IMG/VR virus record: IMGVR_UViG_3300010882_000004
Origin: a virus
Length of the DNA: 33,937 bases
Reading direction: 5' to 3' (one strand)
Made by a program: the position numbers and the translations under genes. How positions within the stretch are numbered: position 1 is the stretch's first letter; each line of letters opens with the position of its first letter. Positions 8,287 through 33,937 of this stretch are shown piece by piece. The notes under the pieces were generated by a model. It did not search any database and had not been told where the DNA came from. It worked only from the letters and a program-made list of their open reading frames with translations.

Positions 8287-8395
8287 ATGACATGGTGTGG
8301 CGTACAGACAAAGCTTCTTCCAAACACATAATCCATACCACCTTTCGAGCATAGACTTCCCTGTACGCCACATCGCCCCCCAAGGAGGTAGCAGC

Positions 8396-8767
8396 GTGGC
8401 TTTGACCGCTAAACAACAAGCGTTCTGCATCGAGTATGCTACCTGTGGGATAGCGACCCTTGCTGCCGAGAGGGCGGGTTATAAGAGCCCCCGAAGCCAA
8501 GGATCACGCCTGTTGACAAATGCTGATGTCGTCGCTCATATCAAACGCGTCCAAGACGAATTGTCGACAGCCAAGATCCTGACCGCCAAACAGCGTCAGG
8601 TCATCCTCTCGGATATTGCCAATTCCGTCGGGTATCGCAACAATGCAGATCGCATCAAGGCAATCGACACGCTTAACAAGATGACCGGAGAGTACCTGAC
8701 CAAGGTCGAGGCAACGGTCAACACCAACGGAAAGATAAATGAGCTGATAGCCGCCGTTCGAGGTTGA
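8396..8767 (+). CDS. terS: Terminase small subunit (Terminase_2-like)
   Basis: GTG start after the SD AAGGAGG. Motif LTAKQQAFCIEYATCG...AAERAGYKSPRSQGSRLLTNADV. Confidence 0.8.
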   Translation: MALTAKQQAFCIEYATCGIATLAAERAGYKSPRSQGSRLLTNADVVAHIKRVQDELSTAKILTAKQRQVILSDIANSVGYRNNADRIKAIDTLNKMTGEYLTKVEATVNTNGKINELIAAVRG

Positions 8768-8768
8768 T

Positions 8769-10154
8769 ATGGCAACCATCAGACTCAGTGAGAAGTACTG
8801 TGACTTCATGCGGCACTCAGGCTCGCGCCTCGAGGTCTTGGAAGGCACCACACTTTCAGGTAAGACCACGGTCGGCATCATGAAATTCATCATGCTGGTC
8901 GCCGAATCAGACAAGACCCAGCACGTACTGGCGGGAAACGACCTAGGCACGATAGAGTCCAACATCATCAACGCAGACAACGGTCTGCTCGATGTGTTCG
9001 ACGGTGACGCGGTCTATTTCGCCAACGGCTCAGGAAACATCACGCGCCCTCATATCGCGCTGAACTGTTCGGGGGTGCGCAAGACCATCTACGTGGTCGG
9101 CTATGACACCGAAGCGCGTTGGAAAAAGATACTGGGCTCTCAGTCCGGTTGCATCTACATCGACGAGATCAACATTGCCAACATCCGATTCGTCAGGCAA
9201 GCCATGATGCGCAGCGACTACGTGATGGCAACGCTTAATCCTGACGACCCGTCACTGGCGGTCTATACCGAATACATCAACCGGTGCCGCCCCATCGAGA
9301 AGTACCAAGACGATGGACCCGCCGAGCTGCTGAGGATGCTTGACGGCGAGCCGATGGACGGCTATACGTGGTGGTATTTCAGCTTCGAGCACAACGACGG
9401 GGTGGCAGAGTCGGAGAAGGAGCACAAGCGCACCAGCCAGGTACCGGGTACCAAAGAGCACAAGAACCTCATCTTGGGACTTCGTGGACGCGCCACGGGG
9501 CTGGTGTTTTCAAACTTCGACAGGAACAAGCATGTTGTCAGTGCCGAAGAGGCGGCTGCACACGTCGGAAGCGATGTGGACCCGTTCGTTGTCTTTACTG
9601 CAGGACTGGACACCAGCTACTCGCAAAAGAGCGCGGACACCATCGCGTTGGCGTTTGTCGGTATCACGGCATCAGGCATCAAGTACACGCTTGACGAGAA
9701 GACCTACAACAACCGCGACATGGATGTGCCACTGGCACCATCGGATACCGTCACGCGCTTCATCGAGTTTTTGGAGCGCAACAGACAGACCTGGGGCTTT
9801 GCTCGGCACGTCTATATCGATAGTGCGGATCAGGCAACGATAACCGAATTCGCCAAGTACAAGCGCAACAGCGCCTGCATATACGACTTCATACCCAGCT
9901 ATAAAAAGACCAAGAACGTGGACCGCATCATCATGGAGCGCGGTTGGCTCCAGGCAGGTCACGCCTTCGTGGTCAAGACCTGCAAAGACGCAATCGCCGA
10001 GAGGGAGTCCTACTCATGGCGCGAGGATAAAGACAATGAGCCCGAAGACGGCAACGACCACATGATACAGGCCGACCAGTACGCCTGGTTGCCCTACAAG
10101 TCCAAGATCGGAGACAACAGTGTGGATAACAGAGAGGATACGGGACATGGCTAG
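8769..10154 (+). CDS. terL: Terminase large subunit (PBSX/Terminase_3-like)
   Basis: Walker A GTTLSGKT. Walker B-like CIYIDEI. 461 aa. Position after terS. Confidence 0.9.
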   Translation: MATIRLSEKYCDFMRHSGSRLEVLEGTTLSGKTTVGIMKFIMLVAESDKTQHVLAGNDLGTIESNIINADNGLLDVFDGDAVYFANGSGNITRPHIALNCSGVRKTIYVVGYDTEARWKKILGSQSGCIYIDEINIANIRFVRQAMMRSDYVMATLNPDDPSLAVYTEYINRCRPIEKYQDDGPAELLRMLDGEPMDGYTWWYFSFEHNDGVAESEKEHKRTSQVPGTKEHKNLILGLRGRATGLVFSNFDRNKHVVSAEEAAAHVGSDVDPFVVFTAGLDTSYSQKSADTIALAFVGITASGIKYTLDEKTYNNRDMDVPLAPSDTVTRFIEFLERNRQTWGFARHVYIDSADQATITEFAKYKRNSACIYDFIPSYKKTKNVDRIIMERGWLQAGHAFVVKTCKDAIAERESYSWREDKDNEPEDGNDHMIQADQYAWLPYKSKIGDNSVDNREDTGHG

Positions 10155-11616
10155 GTCATTTCTCAAGATAGACGACCCCAGCACCTCTCGTATACAGATT
10201 CAAGGTGCTCTTACACACGATGCCGAGATGTTTCGAGACTACGTGTGGTCGCGTGGCAATCCCACCGAGCTCAACGAGCTATTCTCACAGCTCAGCTCCA
10301 ACATGCATACGTTTTGGGGGGCCAAAGGATCACTGGCCATCCGCAAGATGCATACCGGACTGCCACGCATCATCATCAACAAACTGGTCGACATCACCGT
10401 TGCCGATCTGAACGGCATCACGGTCAACGACCCGGACAAAGTCGATGACGAGGCACAGCTCTCGAGACAACATGAGCTCTGGGAGGCGATCGCGACAGAA
10501 AACGATTTCATGCGTATAGCGAAACGCTCGACCAAGAAGGCTCTTGCCCTCGGTGACGGCGCGTTCAAGCTGACGTATGACCCCGATATCTCCAAGCTAC
10601 CGATCATTGAATTTTACGGTGGCGACCGGGTTGATTTCATCTACAAGAAAGGCAGACTGACAGAGCTGGTCTTTTACAGCAGCTACAAAGTCAAGGACAA
10701 GGTCTACGAGCTTGCCGAGCACTACGGCTTTGGCTACATCAACTACCGCCTCACGCATGGTGGCAAGGAATGCGAACTTGCCCGGGTGCCCGATCTGGCA
10801 CAACTGGTCGACCTGACCTTTGATGACTCGTACATCTTCGGTGTGCCCTACGTGATATTTGAGACCGACCGTGACGACGCAGAAGGAAGAGGTCAGTCGA
10901 TCCTTGCTGGAAAGAGCGATGCGTTCGACGCACTCGATGAGTCTATCTCGCAATGGTGGCAAGCGCTTCGAGACGGCAGGACGCGTGTCTATATCCCTGA
11001 CAACCTCCTGCCACGCGACCCAAACGGCGGTACGATACTCAAGCCGAACCCGTTTGACAATGCCTACATTGCGCTAGGCTCGAACATGCAGGAGACGGGA
11101 GAGGACAAGGTCTCAGTCGTCGAGCCCCAGCTTCAGACCGACAAATACCTCGAGTCCTACATCACCGCACTCGACCTCTGCCTGGAAGGGCTGATCAGTC
11201 CCTCGACGCTGGGCATCGATGTCAAAAAGCTCGATAATGCCGAGGCACAGCGCGAGAAGGAGAAGACCACGCTGTATACCCGCCAGGCGATCGTAGACGC
11301 GCTCGGCGAGGTGATCGCCTCACTGGTAGCCACAACGCTTCAGTTCGCGGCAGTGCTCAATAGTGTCACGCCTGAGGCTGTCGTGGTCGATGTACAGTTC
11401 GGCGAGTATGCCAATCCCAGCTTCGAGGCACAGGTTGAGACACTGTCAGATCCCAATACCCCGATGAGCATCGAGGCACGTGTCGACGAGCTCTACGGCG
11501 ATAACAAGACCCAGGAGTGGAAGGATGGCGAGGTCGATCGCATCAAGGCCGAGAGAGGACTTGGCGGCGTCGGTGAGTCCGCGCTAGAGCAAGATTATGG
11601 CTCAATCAGCGTATGA
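10147..11616 (+). CDS. Portal protein (SPP1 gp6-like)
   Basis: 489 aa. Located directly after terL and before the MuF gene. ATG after GAGAGGA. Confidence 0.8.
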   Translation: MARSFLKIDDPSTSRIQIQGALTHDAEMFRDYVWSRGNPTELNELFSQLSSNMHTFWGAKGSLAIRKMHTGLPRIIINKLVDITVADLNGITVNDPDKVDDEAQLSRQHELWEAIATENDFMRIAKRSTKKALALGDGAFKLTYDPDISKLPIIEFYGGDRVDFIYKKGRLTELVFYSSYKVKDKVYELAEHYGFGYINYRLTHGGKECELARVPDLAQLVDLTFDDSYIFGVPYVIFETDRDDAEGRGQSILAGKSDAFDALDESISQWWQALRDGRTRVYIPDNLLPRDPNGGTILKPNPFDNAYIALGSNMQETGEDKVSVVEPQLQTDKYLESYITALDLCLEGLISPSTLGIDVKKLDNAEAQREKEKTTLYTRQAIVDALGEVIASLVATTLQFAAVLNSVTPEAVVVDVQFGEYANPSFEAQVETLSDPNTPMSIEARVDELYGDNKTQEWKDGEVDRIKAERGLGGVGESALEQDYGSISV

Positions 11617-13234
11617 CATCCGACGAGCCTTCCAAGCAATAGAAAAAGAGCTCATAGCCTCGATGATGCGCAACATGGGCGGTCATCGCGACTGGGAGCT
11701 CTCAGAGGGCTTTGACTGGACGATGTGGCAGGTCGAACAACTTGCCGCGATGCAGCGGTACCGACTGGAGAACTACCACCGCTTCGGCAAGCAGTTTAGC
11801 GACATCAACAAAGAGATCGCCGAGAGTATCAAGAGGGCGTATGCCGCCGGTGGGTTTGACCAGGAGGCGCAGATACTACAAGCCATCGCCAAAGGCTTTC
11901 GACCACCGAGAACCGCCCTGACAGGCGATGATTCGCTCGGAGGAGCGTTTTTCGGGGTCAACCACCGCAAGATGGACGCGTTGCTTCAAGCCACCATGCA
12001 CGACATGGAGATCGCCGAGACATCGATGCTGAGAATGGCTGATGACCAGTACCGGCGCATCGCCTTTAACGCGCAGGTATATGCCAACAGCGGGGCAGGA
12101 ACGCTTCACCAAGCCATCGATATGGCCTCACGTGCGTTTCTCGCCGCCGGTTTTAACTGCATCGAGTACAAGAACGGGGCACGTGTCGGCATCGATGCCT
12201 ACGCCGAGATGGCTATACGCACCGCCAACAAGCGTGCCTACCTTCACGGAGAAGGTGCAAAGCGTCAAGAGTTCGGTGTGACAACGGTCGTCGTACATGG
12301 TCGCGTGATGGCGTGTCCGTCGTGTATGGACTGGGTCGGTCGCGTCTACATCGACGATGTGTGGAGTGGCGGCACCGCCTCCGATGGGGACTACCCCATG
12401 CTCTCAGAAGCTATCGAGGGCGGTCTGTACCACCCTAACTGTCAGGATATCCACTCGACTTACTACGAGGGTATCTCAGCTGAACCAAAGCCTCCAACAG
12501 AGGAGGAGAAGGCTGAGGCTGTTCGCAAGTACGAGGAGACTCAGAAGCTCCGAACCGCCATGCGGAGAGAACAGCGTTGGGAACGTACCGAGAGCGGAAG
12601 CCTGACACCAGAGAATAAACGACATGCTATCGCGCATAAAAAGCTTTCGCATCAACGCGTTATAGAGCTTGACACTGATGGTCTTCTGCCGAGAAAGAAG
12701 GAAGAGGGGAATATCTTTACTGGAGAGGGGATGTCGTTTTCGGCTGAACCGGAACTTGAAAAAATGAAGAATGAGTTTCCTGGATTCATAAGTCCGAATG
12801 TGGTTATTGATGATATCGGCAGTAGACTTGGTGGCATCTATGATCCCACGACGCACACGGTAACATTGGGCACACACCCGGATAGTCTTGCCGCTAAGAA
12901 AGAAAGCGCGAGACAGTATGCAAAGGGATATTGGTCTACGCCAGATCCTCGAGGAACGATTTATCATGAGTTATCTCATGCGATGATTGAGACATCTAAG
13001 CTCAACCAGATGCTAGCCGTAGATTTATTCCAGTTTGATGTGGGGACTGCGCTTCTAGAACACTTTAAGCAATTACAAAAAAGTGACAAAATCGCCGAAG
13101 CTCTATTATCGAGATATGGGGCGGAAACTTTATCGGAAATGGTGTGTGAATCTATTGCTGAGTATATGAGCACTTCGAAAACACGTCCGTTTGCACGTGA
13201 GGTGGTAGAATTAGTGAAGAAAGGAATGATGTAG
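11597..13234 (+). CDS. Head morphogenesis protein (MuF/SPP1 gp7 family) fused to a low-GC C-terminal HExxH zincin-like domain
   Basis: MuF-type core ends at ACPSCMDWVGRVY...GGLYHPNCQDIHSTY (about 12470). It is followed by a charged linker. The C-terminal ~210 aa contain HELSH (12965..12979) and ESIAEY. GC drops from about 57% to about 44% from ~12600 (hand-counted 60-nt lines). Confidence 0.8.
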   Translation: MAQSAYDIRRAFQAIEKELIASMMRNMGGHRDWELSEGFDWTMWQVEQLAAMQRYRLENYHRFGKQFSDINKEIAESIKRAYAAGGFDQEAQILQAIAKGFRPPRTALTGDDSLGGAFFGVNHRKMDALLQATMHDMEIAETSMLRMADDQYRRIAFNAQVYANSGAGTLHQAIDMASRAFLAAGFNCIEYKNGARVGIDAYAEMAIRTANKRAYLHGEGAKRQEFGVTTVVVHGRVMACPSCMDWVGRVYIDDVWSGGTASDGDYPMLSEAIEGGLYHPNCQDIHSTYYEGISAEPKPPTEEEKAEAVRKYEETQKLRTAMRREQRWERTESGSLTPENKRHAIAHKKLSHQRVIELDTDGLLPRKKEEGNIFTGEGMSFSAEPELEKMKNEFPGFISPNVVIDDIGSRLGGIYDPTTHTVTLGTHPDSLAAKKESARQYAKGYWSTPDPRGTIYHELSHAMIETSKLNQMLAVDLFQFDVGTALLEHFKQLQKSDKIAEALLSRYGAETLSEMVCESIAEYMSTSKTRPFAREVVELVKKGMM

Positions 13235-13238
13235 TACC

Positions 13239-13415
13239 GTGAGACTGACAGAGGAACAATCTGAGTATCTCGAACGTCTTGACACTTATAAGTTCAAAGC
13301 GATTCATATCGGCACAATGCCTGATGATATGAAAGCAGAGCTCAAGTTGCTTGATGAATTCGGTCACAGAGCAAGAGGCGAACATATTATCGCTAACTAC
13401 CAAGTATTAACATAA
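13239..13415 (+). CDS. Small hypothetical ORF, 58 aa (candidate partner or immunity protein of the MuF C-terminal domain)
   Basis: Below the track cutoff. GTG start with the SD-like AAAGGAA about 12 nt upstream, which is long spacing. Same low GC as the MuF tail. Followed by two terminators. Confidence 0.3.
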   Translation: MRLTEEQSEYLERLDTYKFKAIHIGTMPDDMKAELKLLDEFGHRARGEHIIANYQVLT

Positions 13416-13440
13416 AGACAAGTGCTATGCTAGTCAAACC

Positions 13441-13464
13441 AAAGACCCTTCGGGGTCTTTTTTG
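13441..13464 (+). terminator. Rho-independent terminator
   Basis: Stem AAAGACCC / GGGTCTTT with loop TTCG, then a T run. Confidence 0.8.
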
Positions 13465-13505
13465 ATGTCTGAAACTTGCTGAAGACATAAAACCCCGTAT
13501 TAAGC

Positions 13506-13526
13506 AGCCCCGCAAGGGGCTTTTTC
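13506..13526 (+). terminator. Second rho-independent terminator
   Basis: Stem AGCCCC / GGGGCT with loop GCAA, then TTTTT. Confidence 0.75.
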
Positions 13527-13585
13527 AATGGCTGACGAGCCAAAACCGCAATGGCCGTACGGGCCCAAAACGAAAGGATGTTGAA

Positions 13586-14227
13586 ATGGACAACGTAGCC
13601 AGCACCACGCCCGAGCCGACACCGCAAGCCGAGCCAGCGCCACCGGCAGAACCGGTCGCTGCACCTGTTGCAGCACCGACACCACCGGTAGCACCATCGC
13701 AAGATGATCTGCTTGCAAAGATCGCCCAGATCGTCGATTCGACCGCACCGGCCAAAGCCAACAAGGTCATCGACGGGATGAAGGGATCGCAGGGGCTGAC
13801 AGACGACGAGGCAGCCGAGCTTAAGGCAGCGTACAAAGACTACCGCAAGCAGGTAGCCGCCGCTCCCAACGAGGAGCTGCAGACTCTCAGAGATGAGAAC
13901 GCCGCCTTCAAAGCAGCCGAAGCATTGCGCCAGGTTCAAAAATCAGCGGCAAAGATCGCCAAAGAACTTGAAGTCGATGCCGACAGTCTCGAAGACGCTC
14001 TTACGCTTGCAAGGCTCGATAGTTGCGTGGTTGACGGTGTGCTTGATGAGGCAAAAGCCAAAGAGGCACTCGAAGCGGTCCTAAAAAGACGTCCGGAGTT
14101 CAAGAATCCAGCTGCCAATGCTGGGTTTACACCTGTAGGAGCCTCTGGGGCGACCGGAGGCGTGACCGGGGACGGTCTTGACGCCTTACTAAAGGCGGCA
14201 GGAGTCCCACCTAAACAGAAAGGATAG
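13586..14227 (+). CDS. Scaffolding protein
   Basis: Pro/Ala-rich N-terminus, long charged helical region, and position between the MuF and capsid genes. Confidence 0.7.
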   Translation: MDNVASTTPEPTPQAEPAPPAEPVAAPVAAPTPPVAPSQDDLLAKIAQIVDSTAPAKANKVIDGMKGSQGLTDDEAAELKAAYKDYRKQVAAAPNEELQTLRDENAAFKAAEALRQVQKSAAKIAKELEVDADSLEDALTLARLDSCVVDGVLDEAKAKEALEAVLKRRPEFKNPAANAGFTPVGASGATGGVTGDGLDALLKAAGVPPKQKG

Positions 14228-26525: not shown

Positions 26526-26842
26526 TGTGGGCTACAGCTATCAACGCATTCGGTGAGCTCGAAAGTGCACGTATGGTGCTCTACATCGTGGTTGCGGTCT
26601 ACATGGTCATTGGAAGATTTGACACCAAAAAGCTCCAAGAAGAGATCAGCTACATCAAGCGCAACCAGTTCAAGGCTGCGTTCTACAATGCCAACCTTCC
26701 CATCACCGAGCGTCTAGACGCCGGACACAAATACCTCGAAGAGGGCGGCAACTCACGCACGAAGGCGGATATCGAACTGTTGGCAAAAAAGCATGCCGAT
26801 AGCTGGCTCCAGATACAAAGCGCAGAAAGGAACGGCGAATGA
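26525..26842 (+). CDS. Hypothetical membrane-anchored protein (N-terminal TM)
   Basis: TAATG overlap with the upstream gene. TM segment MVLYIVVAVYMVIG. Confidence 0.45.
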   Translation: MWATAINAFGELESARMVLYIVVAVYMVIGRFDTKKLQEEISYIKRNQFKAAFYNANLPITERLDAGHKYLEEGGNSRTKADIELLAKKHADSWLQIQSAERNGE

Positions 26843-28422
26843 TTAACGTCACACTTGAAGGTCGCGAGCTTTATCGTGACAAAATCTACATCGGCGTCGA
26901 GGGCGACAATCGCGCAGAAGCCGTACGCTTTAACTTTCCTGCGACTATCGATGGATACCCTGATGATGACGGCACGGTCAAGACCTATGATACGAACAAG
27001 CTCGGGCTTTCTATCGCGGTGGCGGGCAAAGGTAAGAATAAAGGCATTGACGGTGGCGACGAGCTCGCCATCACCAACCGAAGCGCTATCTATGTCATCA
27101 CTAACGCCATCACAGCCAGTGGCGAGTACTACTACGGTCTGCGTTTTACCGATGGCAAGAAATTAGTCATGAATACCCTCCCCGCACAGATGATCGTGTC
27201 CAAAGGCATCGATTTTAGCAACTCCCCGATATTTGAAATCCCGCTGACGATCGCCGATCAACTCTCAGGGCTTATATCCTCACTTGAATCTCGCGTAGAT
27301 TTTCTTGAGGAGCATGGCGGTGGAGGCGGTGGGGGAGATGGCACATTTGACCACCGTCAACTGTTGTATCGTGATGCGGCAGGCGCCCATCCCGCAAAGG
27401 CAATCACCTTTGATGACGGCGAGACGTTTCAGCAAAAACTCGACGCGGGCAAGCTCAAAGGTGACGTCGGCGGTCCCGGTGATCCTGGTACACCTGGCGA
27501 GAAAGGTGACCCAGGCATAAAAGGTGACAAGGGAGATCCCGGTCCAAAAGGCGATCCCGGCGATTCAGGCTCAGGTGGCGGACCATCAAACGCACTTGGT
27601 GTATTTCCTGCAGAACTAGAGCAGCGTCCAGCTGGATATGAGAATACTCCGATTCTATGGACACTGGAGGGTCGCACTTTTTACGGTGACCCGAAAGGTG
27701 CGCTACTTGGCGACTTTTGGTCTTTGGGTACGGCGGGTGAGATACTCGTTTGTGCAGAGTGGTATAACCCCTCGAACATGGTGTGGGTCTTTGTCAATCA
27801 GTCTGAGCTGGACAAAAAAGTCCATACGTATGGTGATGTTCTGAGGTCCGGTAAGTTCACCAATCGAGGCAATATCGAAACGGACAACTGGGGTGCTACA
27901 ACAACTGGTCATATCATCGAGCGCGGTCAGCGCGTCTACTCCCCGAACAACCCGCCACCTGCCCCTGACCTGAGCGGACTAGCGACCGAGCAATACGTCG
28001 ATAACGCTATCAGCCAAATCGAGGGTGGCGAGGGCATCAAGGGCGACAAGGGTGATCCCGGAGAAAAGGGTGATCCCGGCGCACCCGGACCCAAAGGCGA
28101 TAAAGGTGACAAGGGAGACGCGGGCGCGACTGGACCCAAAGGTGACACTGGCGTGGCAGGTCCCAAGGGAGATACTGGAGCGCAGGGTGCGAAGGGCGAT
28201 CCCGGAGCCACTGGTGCTACAGGAGCCACAGGACCGCAGGGTAATCCCGGCAACACCGGAGCAGCCGGAGCCAACGGTGCCGATGGACTGACCACCGCCG
28301 TCAAGGTGTGGGCTAACATCTACACGCAGTCCGGCGGCACAGTCACGCTACCGGCTGATATTCTGCGTGGTCGGCTTAGTGGTGGAGTGCTCTACACGAC
28401 CACAGACGGGAGCAATCCCTAA
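26839..28422 (+). CDS. BppU-N-like fibre protein with two collagen-like G-X-Y tracts
   Basis: G-X-Y runs at about 27463..27570 and about 28030..28290. The N-terminus resembles the baseplate upper protein N-domain. Confidence 0.7.
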   Translation: MINVTLEGRELYRDKIYIGVEGDNRAEAVRFNFPATIDGYPDDDGTVKTYDTNKLGLSIAVAGKGKNKGIDGGDELAITNRSAIYVITNAITASGEYYYGLRFTDGKKLVMNTLPAQMIVSKGIDFSNSPIFEIPLTIADQLSGLISSLESRVDFLEEHGGGGGGGDGTFDHRQLLYRDAAGAHPAKAITFDDGETFQQKLDAGKLKGDVGGPGDPGTPGEKGDPGIKGDKGDPGPKGDPGDSGSGGGPSNALGVFPAELEQRPAGYENTPILWTLEGRTFYGDPKGALLGDFWSLGTAGEILVCAEWYNPSNMVWVFVNQSELDKKVHTYGDVLRSGKFTNRGNIETDNWGATTTGHIIERGQRVYSPNNPPPAPDLSGLATEQYVDNAISQIEGGEGIKGDKGDPGEKGDPGAPGPKGDKGDKGDAGATGPKGDTGVAGPKGDTGAQGAKGDPGATGATGATGPQGNPGNTGAAGANGADGLTTAVKVWANIYTQSGGTVTLPADILRGRLSGGVLYTTTDGSNP

Positions 28423-30163: not shown

Positions 30164-31282
30164 TTAGACACCCGATGCACGTAATATCTGCGATATTTCG
30201 GACATATATTTCACCTGCATGGACCGGGTCGTCTTCACGTATTTGTTGAGTGTGGTCGCAGGGTTGGTATGTCCGAGCCATGCCGCAAGCGTCGTGTAAT
30301 CAATATCTGCGTTGACGCACGCCGTGGCAAACGAGTGGCGCATGGAAAAGATCGTGATAGCTGGAAGCTCATTGCGATCCCTGAAACGATGAAGCATATC
30401 CCTCGCGGCATTCGGACTCATTCGCCGACCAAAGGTATTGACGCATACAGGAGCGTTGACGATGACGTTTTTCGACCCGTACCTGGCTTGATGATTCGCA
30501 AGAAGCGCTGTAAGCCGCTTTACGGCATAATCGTTCATCGGGATAGTCCGATATGACCCTCCCGTCTTTAGAGGGGTCAGAGTAGCCCCACCTTTCTTGT
30601 ACGTGTACGTTTGGCGCACACGTATCTCCCGCGCATCGAGGTTGACGTCACACCAGTCCAGTCCGAGTATCTCTCCCTTGCGCAATCCAAAACACAAACC
30701 AAGCAACACGACAGGCTCAATTACGTGGTCTCTTACTGCGTCAAGCACCTGCGCGTGCTCATCAAACGTTGCTAGCACCACCCCGTAAGCGTCTGGCTCA
30801 GTCGGCTGGGTGTCTGGATAGGCAAACCTACCGCTTGCGACATTTTCCGTTACAAGTCCAAGCCCTTGGGCAGATCCCAGAACAGAACGCAACGTCTCCC
30901 GCGTGTTGGTGCCTACCTTGCGTGTCGGTAACTCGTTGAGCAGCTGCTGCACGTGCATACGTGTGAGCTTGCCTATCTCGATATTGCCGATACCCTTCTC
31001 GGCGTCTACGATACGTTTGACATCGCGTCTGTATCCGTCAAGGGTCGTTCCGCGCAGATTCTTCTTATCGGCCCAAAAGAACTGCTCGATAAACTCCGAT
31101 ACCGTGATGCGGTCGGATAGCCCTTTGAGGGCGTCGCGCTTGCGCTCCTGTGTGTTTCCCCAGATAACCGCTTGCTCGTAGGTTTCGCAGACTTTGCTGA
31201 CCTTATCCGATCTACCGTCGAGTTTCTTTCCGATGACGACGAATACGCGGTACTTTCCATCTTCACGTTTCTTTATGTGCAT
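30164..31282 (-). CDS. int: Tyrosine-type site-specific integrase
   Basis: Catalytic-type motifs GLRKGE, MRHSFAT, WLGHTN and LNKYV. 372 aa. Confidence 0.9.
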   Translation of the reverse strand: MHIKKREDGKYRVFVVIGKKLDGRSDKVSKVCETYEQAVIWGNTQERKRDALKGLSDRITVSEFIEQFFWADKKNLRGTTLDGYRRDVKRIVDAEKGIGNIEIGKLTRMHVQQLLNELPTRKVGTNTRETLRSVLGSAQGLGLVTENVASGRFAYPDTQPTEPDAYGVVLATFDEHAQVLDAVRDHVIEPVVLLGLCFGLRKGEILGLDWCDVNLDAREIRVRQTYTYKKGGATLTPLKTGGSYRTIPMNDYAVKRLTALLANHQARYGSKNVIVNAPVCVNTFGRRMSPNAARDMLHRFRDRNELPAITIFSMRHSFATACVNADIDYTTLAAWLGHTNPATTLNKYVKTTRSMQVKYMSEISQILRASGV

Positions 31283-31932: not shown

Positions 31933-32835
31933 CTAGCTCCTTCTTCGTTTCTCTATTTCGTGCAAAGACTCCACTCCCATTTTCCTTAATAACCCTTCTC
32001 TTGGAATGGAGTCAATACGCCTCAGGCACCCGTCGACAGACCTGCGTATCGTGCCTCGCAGATGCCTGCTGTCACTCTCACTCAGGAAGATATCCATATC
32101 ATCGAGGATATCGACGAAGCTGAGGTTGCCCTGCGAAAAACGTGCGCAATACAACCTTTCATCGTGCGCACAGATGTTGCGTGCCGCATTTATATTGTCC
32201 AGCGCATCGAGAACCTGTGGCGATCCGATTCTCCACTTGCTCACATTATCCATGCGATATCGGTCGCTGAAGTCCTGCGCTATCCTCTTGCGGAGATGCT
32301 CCTTTTGGAAACTGAAAAGCCTGAGTGTCTGTCCGAACGCCATAGAGTTTGCCAGAACCCAGATCGGAACCGCACCGTACTTTGATTGATAGTGTTCGAT
32401 GTAGGGTCTACGGTTCTTGTTGTTCAGTATTGAGGTCAGATTATCTATCAGGCGATTTACCTGCCCTTGATAGTTCCCGTCGTCGCGGTATGTCGATGGG
32501 TCGAGGTAGAAGCTGGTCAAGCCATCGTTTGCCTCCGCGAGACGGTAGGAAACCGTCGTCCTCATATATGCCTCTATGATAGCCGTATATCTGAAGAGAT
32601 CCATGCGAAGAGAGCGATCGAACAGGAACAACCTGTGGATTTCCTTGAATGCCGTTCCCCGCCTGAACTCATCGCCGGTTGCTGTCGTTCGGTATACGAA
32701 GAAGGATTTATAGCCGTTTACGACGGCATAGTAGCCCTCGCGCTGCAAGACGGCAGAGGTTTCGTTGTCGGTTCTCACCCCACGGCTCTCAAGCAATTCG
32801 ACCTGTTCCTTTATCGTGAGGAACTGCTTCTCCAT
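31933..32835 (-). CDS. Abi_2 (AbiD/AbiF-like) HEPN-domain abortive infection protein
   Basis: Overall Abi_2-like layout. R-x4-H motif RNICAH at 32164..32181. ATG 32835 chosen because the track GTG 32856 lies inside the upstream terminator T run. Confidence 0.7.
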   Translation of the reverse strand: MEKQFLTIKEQVELLESRGVRTDNETSAVLQREGYYAVVNGYKSFFVYRTTATGDEFRRGTAFKEIHRLFLFDRSLRMDLFRYTAIIEAYMRTTVSYRLAEANDGLTSFYLDPSTYRDDGNYQGQVNRLIDNLTSILNNKNRRPYIEHYQSKYGAVPIWVLANSMAFGQTLRLFSFQKEHLRKRIAQDFSDRYRMDNVSKWRIGSPQVLDALDNINAARNICAHDERLYCARFSQGNLSFVDILDDMDIFLSESDSRHLRGTIRRSVDGCLRRIDSIPREGLLRKMGVESLHEIEKRRRS

Positions 32836-32848
32836 GACGGTGACCCCT

Positions 32849-32877
32849 AAAACCACAAAAGGCGCAACGCGCCTTCT
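32849..32877 (-). terminator. Rho-independent terminator between the repressor and Abi genes
   Basis: The minus strand reads AAGGCGC GTT GCGCCTT followed by TTGTGGTTTT. Confidence 0.65.
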
Positions 32878-32997
32878 GGGGGTTGCTCCGATATTGCATT
32901 CGTCACAACCGCATCACATCCATTATGATACACCGATACTCCCATACTGTACAGTTTCTCCATCTCCTAATACCGATAATCGAACGGCTTTTCCTCT

Positions 32998-33654
32998 CTA
33001 AAACGCAGTCAGATAGTCGAACGGTGGGGTGTACCACACGACCGGACCGCGAATCACGATATTGGTGCAGTCTTCATCGGCGCACTTGTAGACATAGGAC
33101 TCATAGGTAGGATCGGTGCTATCAGGTATCAGCTCGACACCTCTATCCAGTATCCTCACCCGCTTGATAAGCCCCTCGGAGCCGTCTACGTTTACCAGTG
33201 CGATATCTCCGGTGGCAACCTGCCCCCCAAAGTCCACGAGGGCATACGTGCCGTCTGGGAGCACCTTGTCCATCGAGGTGCCGTTTACCCGCACGAGCTT
33301 GGCATTGGGATACTTCTTGCCCATAGCGACCGGTACAGGGTGTGTGAGGTCATCTACCGGCAGTTCCTCGTTAGGCACTCCGGCTGATACCGATAACACG
33401 ATGGGGAGATCGATGAATTCTGGATCGACATTATCGATCCTTCGGATACGCTTTCGAGCTAGAGATGATGGATCAAGATCCAGTGCTTTACACATGGCGA
33501 GAACCGTGTCTACACTTTTACCTTCGAAGCCGTTGTTAAGAATTGAATAAATAGTTGTCGGTGGAACACCTATTACCTCAGAGAACTGTCGAACACTCTT
33601 ATATCTTTCGAGGATAATCGCTCGCACTCGATCTTCTAATCGGTTTTCGTACAT
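32998..33654 (-). CDS. CI/LexA-like repressor (N-terminal HTH, C-terminal S24 autopeptidase)
   Basis: HTH segment SVRQFSEVIGVPPTTIYSILNN. Ser motif NGTSMDKVLPDG. Lys motif GLIKRV. SD GGAGGAAAG upstream. Confidence 0.85.
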   Translation of the reverse strand: MYENRLEDRVRAIILERYKSVRQFSEVIGVPPTTIYSILNNGFEGKSVDTVLAMCKALDLDPSSLARKRIRRIDNVDPEFIDLPIVLSVSAGVPNEELPVDDLTHPVPVAMGKKYPNAKLVRVNGTSMDKVLPDGTYALVDFGGQVATGDIALVNVDGSEGLIKRVRILDRGVELIPDSTDPTYESYVYKCADEDCTNIVIRGPVVWYTPPFDYLTAF

Positions 33655-33706
33655 CTTTCCTCCAATACATTACGAGAAAGTAACAATTCGCTATTCTATA
33701 CGAAAT

Positions 33707-33735
33707 ATTATAAATTATTTGCTATTTCGTGTTGA
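33707..33735 (-). promoter_or_regulatory. Candidate repressor (leftward) promoter
   Basis: The minus strand reads TCAACA, 17 nt, TATAAT. Its -35 is back to back with the rightward -35. Flanked by the 8-bp inverted repeat ACGAAATA / TATTTCGT. Confidence 0.55.
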
Positions 33736-33760
33736 CAGATTACGTAATCTCGCTTACTGT
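33732..33760 (+). promoter_or_regulatory. Candidate rightward early promoter
   Basis: TTGACA, 17 nt, TACTGT. The spacer contains the operator palindrome. Confidence 0.55.
33738..33749. promoter_or_regulatory. Operator candidate O1: perfect 12-bp palindrome GATTACGTAATC
   Basis: Self-complementary. Lies in the promoter spacer. Extends to AGATTACGTAATCTCGC. Confidence 0.6.
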
Positions 33761-33769
33761 CAGTAGTAG

Positions 33770-33782
33770 GCGAGATTACGTA
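33770..33782. promoter_or_regulatory. Operator candidate O2: GCGAGATTACGTA (inverted copy of the O1 flank)
   Basis: 13-nt match to the reverse complement of the extended O1. Lies just downstream of the -10 element. Confidence 0.5.
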
Positions 33783-33814
33783 CACATCTGGTAATATGCG
33801 AAATCTCATAAAAG

Positions 33815-33937
33815 AGCACCTTGAAAACTGAATACTGCATAGATGGAAAGGTGGTTCTCATGTTTAGGTTTTCTAAAGAGGACTGGATACTGTTTATTGT
33901 CTGGACGCTAATATGCGTTGCACTCAACCAGTTGGTC
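33815..33937. repeat. Terminal direct repeat copy B (identical to 1..123)
   Basis: Same 123-nt string as 1..123. It lies in the immunity region rather than near terS, so it is more likely a circular-assembly overlap than a physical DTR. Confidence 0.97.

Follow-up and report, generated by a model that had tools for sequence, protein, structure and literature searches.

A lethal-factor-like peptidase tail and a small partner gene as a candidate exchangeable cassette on the MuF head protein of a temperate phage

The IMG/VR virus record IMGVR_UViG_3300010882_000004, a stretch of 33,937 nucleotides (nt) analyzed here as a whole and referred to as the window, contains an open reading frame (ORF) for a MuF-type head protein of 545 amino acids (aa) at 11597..13234 on the plus strand. 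The conserved MuF core of this protein is followed by a C-terminal domain resembling the zinc metallopeptidase of anthrax lethal factor, and the gene is followed by an ORF of 58 codons. The region of approximately 12620-13530, which takes in the last third of the MuF gene, the ORF behind it and the terminators, is best explained as one exchangeable cassette, carried on a conserved head-protein gene of a temperate siphovirus-type phage. We consider it probable that the cassette as a whole encodes a capsid-delivered, lethal-factor-like peptidase together with a cognate inhibitor or immunity partner. A preliminary description of this DNA had proposed a MuF polymorphic-toxin cassette, and that architecture is supported by the MuF core, the swapped tail, a small ORF specific to the tail and the temperate nature of the phage.

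The C-terminal domain comprises 150 aa (aa 396-545; 12782..13234 with the stop codon, plus strand) and is supported by a family alignment, a profile and an AlphaFold model. Its HELSH motif (12965..12979, plus strand) corresponds to H457, E458 and H461, that is, two zinc ligands and the catalytic base, and is flanked by GGIYDPTTHTVTLG upstream and ESIAEY downstream; the position of the motif and the presence of ESIAEY had been given correctly in the preliminary description. H457 and E458 are invariant in all three of our family alignments (A1, A2 and A3), and H461 is invariant in A1 and A3 and at least 90% conserved in A2. In A3, with 32 sequences of approximately 25-30% identity to the window, E518 is likewise invariant, and S505, Y507 and E514 are conserved to at least 90%. 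Taken across more than 50 diverged homologs with overall identities of 25-45%, the HExxH motif is invariant or nearly so.

Comparison of the A3 profile with the PDB retrieved the catalytic region of anthrax lethal factor (2l0r, E 5.6e-5; 4pkq, E 6.7e-4). The alignment places HExxH on the HEFGH of lethal factor, with H457/E458/H461, Y507, E514 and E518 at the positions of H686/E687/H690, Y728, E735 and E739; the last three counterparts lie within a second motif of the window (Y507...E514...E518, YGAETLSEMVCE, 13115..13150, plus strand). In lethal factor, H686, H690 and E735 bind zinc, and E687 and Y728 are catalytic. The AlphaFold model of aa 396-545, with a predicted local distance difference test score (pLDDT) of 88.7 and a predicted template modeling score (pTM) of 0.86, shows three strands and then helices, with HExxH in helix 58-71 and both glutamates in helix 117-129. 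This succession of strands, active-site helix and glutamate-bearing helix resembles the zincin core as described for phage metallopeptidases (PMC5512222). A Foldseek comparison of the model with the PDB ranked lethal factor first with a probability of 0.97, but with an E value of 0.07 and a template modeling (TM) score of 0.46, followed by the putative zinc peptidase 4l7a and the Pro-Pro endopeptidases (PPEP). Against predicted viral structures, proteins of gut phages labeled "Minor capsid protein," "Lethal factor" and "Phage head morphogenesis domain" came out on top (E 6.7e-4 to 8e-3). Conservation and structure prediction together suggest that the tail is a conserved, lethal-factor-like zinc peptidase with an intact catalytic site, and that it is probably active.

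The order of HELSH and ESIAEY had initially been read as a layout of SprT-like or gluzincin metallopeptidases. An acidic motif does follow HELSH, but by homology with lethal factor it is E514 of the preceding LSEMV that would serve as third zinc ligand; ESIAEY begins shortly behind it and contains E518 and E522. In the same way the expectation of a zincin-like fold agrees with the model, but the domain is lethal-factor-like (MEROPS M34-like) and not SprT-like: no SprT family appeared in the Pfam scans of the window protein or its 54 relatives, and a SprT-like viral structure was found only at rank 47 (E 0.71).

The peptidase family was recovered by full-length searching, exhaustive searching and local profile work. 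Approximately ten of the best 120 MuF relatives align over their full length, tail included, and a local iterative profile detected the domain in 23 of these 120. An exhaustive HMMER search with the tail returned 44 cluster representatives at E <= 1e-3; all except the window's own protein were 28-46% identical, the match lying nearly always at the C-terminal end. A word-seeded protein search with the tail alone as query found nothing, the same kind of search with the domain profile gave only 7 proteins, and a single-sequence PDB search gave chance matches only. When the domain or the partner was compared by tblastn with GenBank phages, the result was one unannotated fecal contig or nothing, and no isolated phage there carries the clade. 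Among 54 proteins carrying the domain, the core is of the PF06152 type in 18 and of the PF04233 (Phage_Mu_F) type in 13. These 54 also showed scattered, weak matches to zincin families (Peptidase_Mx1, M90, ATLF, Peptidase_Mx and Tox-MPTase2); the ATLF model (PF07737) did not match the window protein and matched three of the 54 relatives weakly (best E 1.2e-4). PF18818 (MPTase-PolyVal) was not among the families matched by any of the 54 at E <= 0.01.

The core on which this domain is mounted is of a well-known kind. Residues 1-340 (11597..12616, plus strand) form the conserved, head-associated part common to all relatives, with PF06152 (Phage_min_cap2, a model of the MuF superfamily) matching aa 7-338 at E 4.7e-38 (131.5 bits against a cut-off of 26.3) and phrog_581 (minor head protein) matching at E 3.8e-74. 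The MuF/SPP1-gp7 hallmarks noticed earlier in this part of the protein, CPSC (C240/C243) and YHPNC (Y278-C282), are present and invariant among the MuF relatives. With the full-length protein as query, 2765 relatives were recovered at E <= 1e-10; for most of the best 120 the alignment spans approximately 62% of the query, the core part only, at 50-60% identity, a level that hundreds of relatives reach over this part. Precomputed Pfam assignments for these 120 place a variety of domains at the tail position, including PF03496 (an ADP-ribosyltransferase exotoxin), PF14424, PF18451 (CdiA_C), PF15644, PF15542, PF21814, PF18810/PF18812 and PF01129, at least eight other domain types in all, and further relatives end at approximately 350 aa with no additional domain. 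In 96 relatives lacking the tail, the BLASTP alignment ends at a median residue of 349.5 (mode 340-349), and its place is taken by an ADP-ribosyltransferase, a deaminase, CdiA_C, some other domain or nothing. Of the 78 viral contigs whose cores are most similar, 73 carry a different tail or no tail at all. The tail is thus not co-conserved with the core: relatives share residues 1 to approximately 345 and then continue with other domains or stop, as expected from the proposal of a swapped C-terminus on a conserved MuF N-terminus. The breakpoint predicted near 12500-12600 was found slightly further 3', at approximately residue 345 or nt 12630, where the fall in guanine plus cytosine (GC) content begins. 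Between core and peptidase lies a charged linker (aa 341-395; 12617..12781, plus strand), at the start of which this conservation and recombination junction is located. In the full-length AlphaFold model, which is poor (pLDDT 61, pTM 0.35) and was used for the description of the linker only, helices extend to aa 358 and a low-confidence segment covers 360-379.

The 58-codon ORF (13239..13415, plus strand) begins with a GTG codon 4 nt after the MuF stop and is the candidate inhibitor or immunity protein. It was called on the source contig by an independent gene caller too, and what had been noted as a low-GC ORF directly downstream proves to be a conserved gene tied to the peptidase, with a GC content at third codon positions (GC3) of 0.397. 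The family to which it belongs is unannotated, ranges over 49-80 aa and has no Pfam or PHROG model; 37 distinct sequences have in common an aromatic-Leu pair near residue 10, a D/N-x-P motif, an Asp at approximately position 39 and a Gly-x-His near the C-terminus. A hidden Markov model (HMM) of the family built without the window sequence identified 13239..13415 at E 1.4e-6 as the only match among the 380 six-frame ORFs of the window. The association with the peptidase is near-obligate. In 85 of 86 viral loci with the peptidase, the phage of the window among them, a partner ORF of 52-80 aa starts between -25 and +9 nt from the MuF stop, and in bacterial genomes, mostly metagenome-assembled genomes (MAGs) of gut and rumen Clostridia, it stands directly after the peptidase in all 11 loci. 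By comparison, none of 73 control loci, which share the MuF clade but differ in the C-terminus, was found to hold a family member; other small ORFs stand there instead. The partner also stands behind a protein combining MuF, an ADP-ribosyltransferase (ART) and the peptidase (L194, E 6.7e-21) and in two "split" prophages. Promoter-like matches inside the cassette (12816-12844 and 13363-13390) are too weak to serve as evidence for independent expression of the partner.

Two loci with more divergent lethal-factor-like MuF tails are followed by ORFs of 45 and 53 aa (L146:5198-5340 and L150:5124-5285). By eye these show a partner-like pattern of D-x-P and an acidic helix, although the HMM scores them under its threshold, so our counts may underestimate the extent of the partner family.

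The most direct indication of exchange comes from a pair of loci (L051 and L050) whose MuF cores belong to different families and are 24% identical, whereas the last 170 residues of the two proteins are 98% identical and the partner ORFs are identical. At the DNA level the similarity is confined to one block of 1039 bp with 93.6% identity, covering the domain, the partner and the terminator, from approximately 540 nt before the MuF stop to the terminator-like hairpin before the scaffold gene; the flanks are unrelated and nothing else aligns in the 6.3-kb loci. In content and size, the low-GC block of approximately 0.9 kb in the window matches this exchanged unit. Among 46 distinct cassettes, partner identity follows peptidase identity (Spearman 0.63) much more closely than core identity (0.25); the pairs of cassettes are not independent, and p-values for these correlations are not meaningful. 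In all nine pairs with more than 80% identity between the peptidases and less than 35% between the cores, the partners are 82-100% identical, with L040/L042 as a second, independent case. At the level of sequence comparison, these data show that the peptidase and its partner are inherited together, independently of the MuF core.

Two prophages, one of Clostridium sp. YIM B02555 and one of a Lachnospiraceae MAG, display a variation of this arrangement: gene calling splits the peptidase off from a "short" MuF as a gene of its own (L167:2875-2877 and L168:2881-2883). The MuF and peptidase ORFs are in one frame with a single stop codon between them (TAG in one, TAA in the other), the spacer reads as a normal linker when translated, and the partner is kept. 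These could be either fusions inactivated by a nonsense mutation or cases of read-through giving a minor fused product.

A low-GC region with two terminators had been part of the initial case for a toxin cassette, and both features are real. In 200-nt windows the GC content is 0.56-0.60 up to approximately 12500, 0.41-0.47 over 12600-13500 and 0.62 at 13500-13700, so that the hand-counted fall across approximately 12600..13430, with recovery at the scaffold gene, is no counting artifact. The segment 12617-13530, with a GC content of 0.437, is the lowest stretch of 914 nt in the window (sliding mean 0.529, standard deviation 0.026; approximately 3.5 standard deviations below), and GC3 falls from 0.668 in the MuF core to 0.415 in the C-terminal part, being, as given above, lower again in the small ORF. 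The two tandem terminators are present as hairpins followed by T-runs on the plus strand, the first at 13441..13464 (hairpin 13441-13460; 8-bp stem, UUCG loop, -11.5 kcal/mol) and the second at 13506..13526 (hairpin 13506-13521; 6-bp stem, GCAA loop, -12.2 kcal/mol), the latter marking the 3' end of the low-GC block. As support for a toxin cassette, however, both are non-specific. All of 48 relatives with other tails show a drop in GC from core to variable part (mean 0.08), as do nearly all peptidase cassettes, which rules out the dip as proof of a recent foreign origin of the cassette in the window. Terminator-like hairpins before the scaffold gene are found in 32 of 40 peptidase cassettes, and equally in 42 of 48 other long and 8 of 8 short MuF loci, so they are not cassette-specific either. 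Transcription is punctuated at the MuF-scaffold junction, which is also a hot spot for insertions.

The gap between cassette and scaffold gene measures only 170 nt in the window. In relatives it holds a YjcQ protein (PF09639), a Bro-N/ANT protein, a ribbon-helix-helix (RHH) protein and a resolvase (L002:4381-4710, L192:4852-5175, L006:2168-3441 and L167:3876-4493). A second small ORF of 50-74 aa, absent from the window, lies just before the scaffold gene at L005:4488-4676, L192:5240-5464 and L194:4576-4728; it begins with M-x-V-[KR], contains "...LI[SK][KR]GF.EEV," and in one copy matches PF23976 (DUF7302) weakly.

How might such a cassette operate? Judging from the literature on MuF proteins (PMC3482391; PMC5576092; PMC5512222), the MuF core would carry the peptidase into the capsid, a few copies would enter the next host cell along with the DNA, and the peptidase would there cleave a host protein, with the effect of a mild toxin or with a role in takeover or anti-defense. 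From the gene arrangement and the co-inheritance we suggest that synthesis of the small protein is coupled to that of the peptidase and that it binds the enzyme as its cognate inhibitor or immunity factor; it would thereby silence the enzyme in the cell that makes it, in the lysogenic cell, or in the two alike. The enzyme could serve bacterial competition or the phage itself, in takeover, the lysogeny decision or anti-defense. A more far-reaching version, which we put forward as a speculation with rather low confidence, is that the peptidase and its partner of approximately 55 aa constitute an undescribed capsid-carried enzyme-inhibitor pair in which the partner caps the zinc site until DNA ejection and the freed peptidase cleaves a specific host defense or regulatory protein within the first minutes of infection. 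The 1-kb unit would then be an anti-defense plug-in module, and stops of the L167/L168 type would set the number of enzyme-bearing MuF copies.

Several observations weigh against a peptidase delivered with its own inhibitor. The partner is missing in one subclade with a terminal peptidase (P0088/L193) and in two proteins with an internal one (P0060/L191 and P0106/L192), so the peptidase fold can at times do without an inhibitor. The in-frame stop in the two prophages implies that the fusion may be dispensable, and the GC dip and the terminators, being general to the MuF-scaffold junction, provide no specific evidence for a peptidase cassette. On the structural side, the domain model had no Foldseek match in the PDB at E 1e-3, and the window domain passes no model of Pfam, NCBIfam or PHROGs, hence no curated toxin model. 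The peptidase moreover co-occurs with bona fide toxin domains on either side, which also fits a processing role. Packaging, injection, proteolysis, toxicity and the binding of peptidase and partner are all steps that we infer.

One rival explanation is an effector that benefits the phage in anti-defense or host takeover, rather than a toxin used in bacterial competition. The peptidase, once injected, would act early in infection by cleaving an immune or regulatory protein of the host, and the small protein would be a chaperone for folding or packaging, or a timer, with no role in immunity. The evidence from architecture is identical for this explanation and for a peptidase with an immunity partner. 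It has been suggested that MuF domains of low toxicity, such as peptidases or ARTs, may steer the lysis-lysogeny decision or resist cellular defenses (Jamet et al., 2017; PMC5576092), and the logic of polyvalent proteins (PMC5512222) points in the same direction. The high turnover of tails at the locus resembles that of genes in an arms race, and the tight start-stop spacing suggests that the partner is made with the peptidase during late expression rather than in the lysogen. On the other hand, no target is identifiable from sequence, neither the MuF protein nor the partner matches known anti-defense families in Pfam or PHROGs (the PADLOC library, which covers defense systems and not anti-defense proteins, was not searched), and a single enzyme domain paired with a small neighboring gene represents the classical layout of toxin and immunity (PMC5576092). 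We give a role of this kind a rather low probability.

The main rival, which we nevertheless estimate as unlikely, is that the peptidase is a processing enzyme which cuts the MuF fusion, neighboring effector domains or head proteins, in the procapsid or after injection, with the small protein delaying cleavage until assembly. Autoproteolysis has been proposed for phage metallopeptidase (MPTase) domains such as that of P1 DdrB (Iyer et al., PMC5512222), and some family members would suit such a role: the domain stands beside an ADP-ribosyltransferase in P0003, P0004 and P0009 and upstream of CdiA_C or other C-terminal modules in P0036, P0060, P0078 and P0106, and versions with an internal peptidase occur without the small partner. 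Yet the peptidase stands alone and last after the linker in most members, the window protein included, so that nothing obvious is left to release. Relatives with identical sets of head genes do without any peptidase, which is therefore not needed for head maturation, and a dedicated, co-inherited partner is typical of toxin-immunity pairs. An essential prohead maturation protease was rejected on similar grounds, approximately 80% of the closest relatives having the same portal-MuF-scaffold-capsid order without the domain.

Finally, we regard it as highly improbable that the tail lacks catalytic function or is decaying, or that the small ORF is no gene, with the region being low-GC junk at a recombination hot spot. 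In favor of such a view, the window domain has no curated family match, the word-seeded search with the tail alone was empty and the junction collects varied inserts (YjcQ, resolvase, Bro/ANT). Against it, the catalytic residues are all intact and conserved across the family at an overall identity of 25-45%, the domain model is confident (pLDDT 88.7), and the small ORF, which matches the family HMM, keeps its length, position and sequence across 37 versions.

The genomic setting agrees with what is known of such loci. Gene content and Pfam/PHROG scans indicate that the window is essentially one temperate phage genome. The small terminase gene TerS (8297..8767), TerL (8769..10154), the portal gene (10120..11616, plus strand) and the MuF gene abut or overlap each other, the 5' end of the MuF ORF overlapping the 3' end of the portal gene. 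The portal protein matches PF05133 (SPP1_portal) at E 2.7e-4, below the gathering score, and its gene lies between TerL and MuF, an order that matches the relatives. The gene in scaffold position (13586..14227, plus strand; GC 0.58) corresponds in position and size to the PF06810 (Phage_scaffold) genes of relatives, its product having no significant Pfam match; downstream follow a gene in capsid position, tail genes and an endolysin-like gene. The phage is called temperate because an integrase (30164..31282, minus strand) and a CI-like repressor of the helix-turn-helix (HTH)/S24 type (32998..33654, minus strand) form a lysogeny module, which bears out the temperate carrier assumed in the preliminary description. 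The MuF protein occurs in identical form, with a shorter called start, on contigs of 30-34 kb in sequencing-run assemblies, and the window DNA has only two short matches of 68-72% among GenBank phages, both in the portal gene.

Some further features of this setting are recorded here as side observations. In several relatives an ORF of 72-84 aa ("MKVKV.NR.Y.M...") lies between portal and MuF (L191:1776-1994, L192:1774-1998, L193:1731-1985 and L194:1774-2001), which the window lacks because the two genes overlap there. An Abi_2 protein (PF07751, E 1.7e-37; 31933..32856, minus strand) is encoded between integrase and repressor and is likely a prophage-encoded defense gene of the abortive-infection-like type. 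The surroundings of the repressor gene at the lysogeny end (approximately 32900-33900) have the second-lowest GC content of the window (0.466-0.473 in 914-nt stretches). A 527-aa protein of the tail region (26839..28422, plus strand) contains collagen triple-helix repeats (PF01391, E 1.5e-17) and is probably a fiber or receptor-binding protein.

These results point to a module that is widespread in phages of gut and rumen Clostridia, consisting of a 150-aa lethal-factor-like peptidase and a dedicated partner of approximately 55 aa. The peptidase clade and the partner family go unannotated in phage genomes because neither has a Pfam, NCBIfam or PHROGs model, and some phage homologs already carry the label "Lethal factor" through automated annotation. 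MuF toxins are abundant in gut phages, and no peptidase-type member appears to have been studied experimentally. Relatives exist in cultured hosts (a prophage of Hathewaya proteolytica DSM 3090, and Clostridium sp. YIM B02555), as do natural domain-swap pairs; together with the defined catalytic residues, they make packaging, toxicity and inhibition by the partner directly testable. As far as the literature and libraries were searched, the peptidase clade as a family, the partner family with its near-obligate pairing, and the 1-kb transfer between MuF1-type and MuF2-type genes are undescribed. The novelty suggested in the preliminary description was overstated in that lethal-factor-like MPTases are already the commonest domain of phage polyvalent proteins (PMC5512222).

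Among known systems, the closest are the polymorphic toxins built on MuF proteins of temperate phages, which Zhang et al. (2012; PMC3482391) were the first to notice and Jamet et al. (2017; PMC5576092) described. Such toxins are defined by an N-terminal domain of the MuF superfamily (PF04233, PF06152, MuF3 or MuF4), and they share with the window a MuF core (MuF2, equivalent to PF06152) right after the portal gene of a temperate phage and a variable C-terminal extension; a small ORF lies immediately downstream of 89.4% of the toxin genes (PMC5576092), and the window has one too, of less than 150 aa. The tail of the window is undetected by Pfam and would by the method of Jamet et al. count as an extension with an unknown domain. 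A toxin domain shared with other systems is part of how MuF toxins are defined, and here the window is lethal-factor-like at the profile level, but passes no curated toxin model. The MPTase of polyvalent proteins (Iyer, Burroughs, Anand, de Souza and Aravind, 2017; PMC5512222) likewise has an HExxH helix and a glutamate on a later helix, was unified with lethal factor by profile comparison, is virion-associated with network links to MuF and ART, and was proposed to act on or after injection. The window protein differs in having two domains rather than being a giant protein, and in its dedicated small partner, which is not described for the MPTases in that study. With anthrax lethal factor and the Pro-Pro endopeptidases (MEROPS M34; ATLF, PF07737), the nearest solved folds, the pattern HExxH ... 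Y-x6-E-x3-E aligns residue for residue; identity is only approximately 14-20%, and the window domain is a minimal version of 150 aa without a secretion signal, set in a phage capsid protein and not in an exotoxin or secreted peptidase. The Tox-ALFMetallopeptidase of polymorphic toxins, found with Imm-SuFu, is another lethal-factor-like HExxH toxin domain, but is listed as delivered through the Photorhabdus virulence cassette (PVC) and type II secretion pathways and not by MuF, and its immunity protein is SuFu-like, unlike the partner of approximately 55 aa seen here (PMC3482391). The prototype short MuF proteins, SPP1 gp7 and Mu gpF, have a core homologous to that of the window and are also encoded after the portal gene; they are single-domain proteins without a C-terminal peptidase or partner ORF (PMC5576092), whereas the phage of the window has both.

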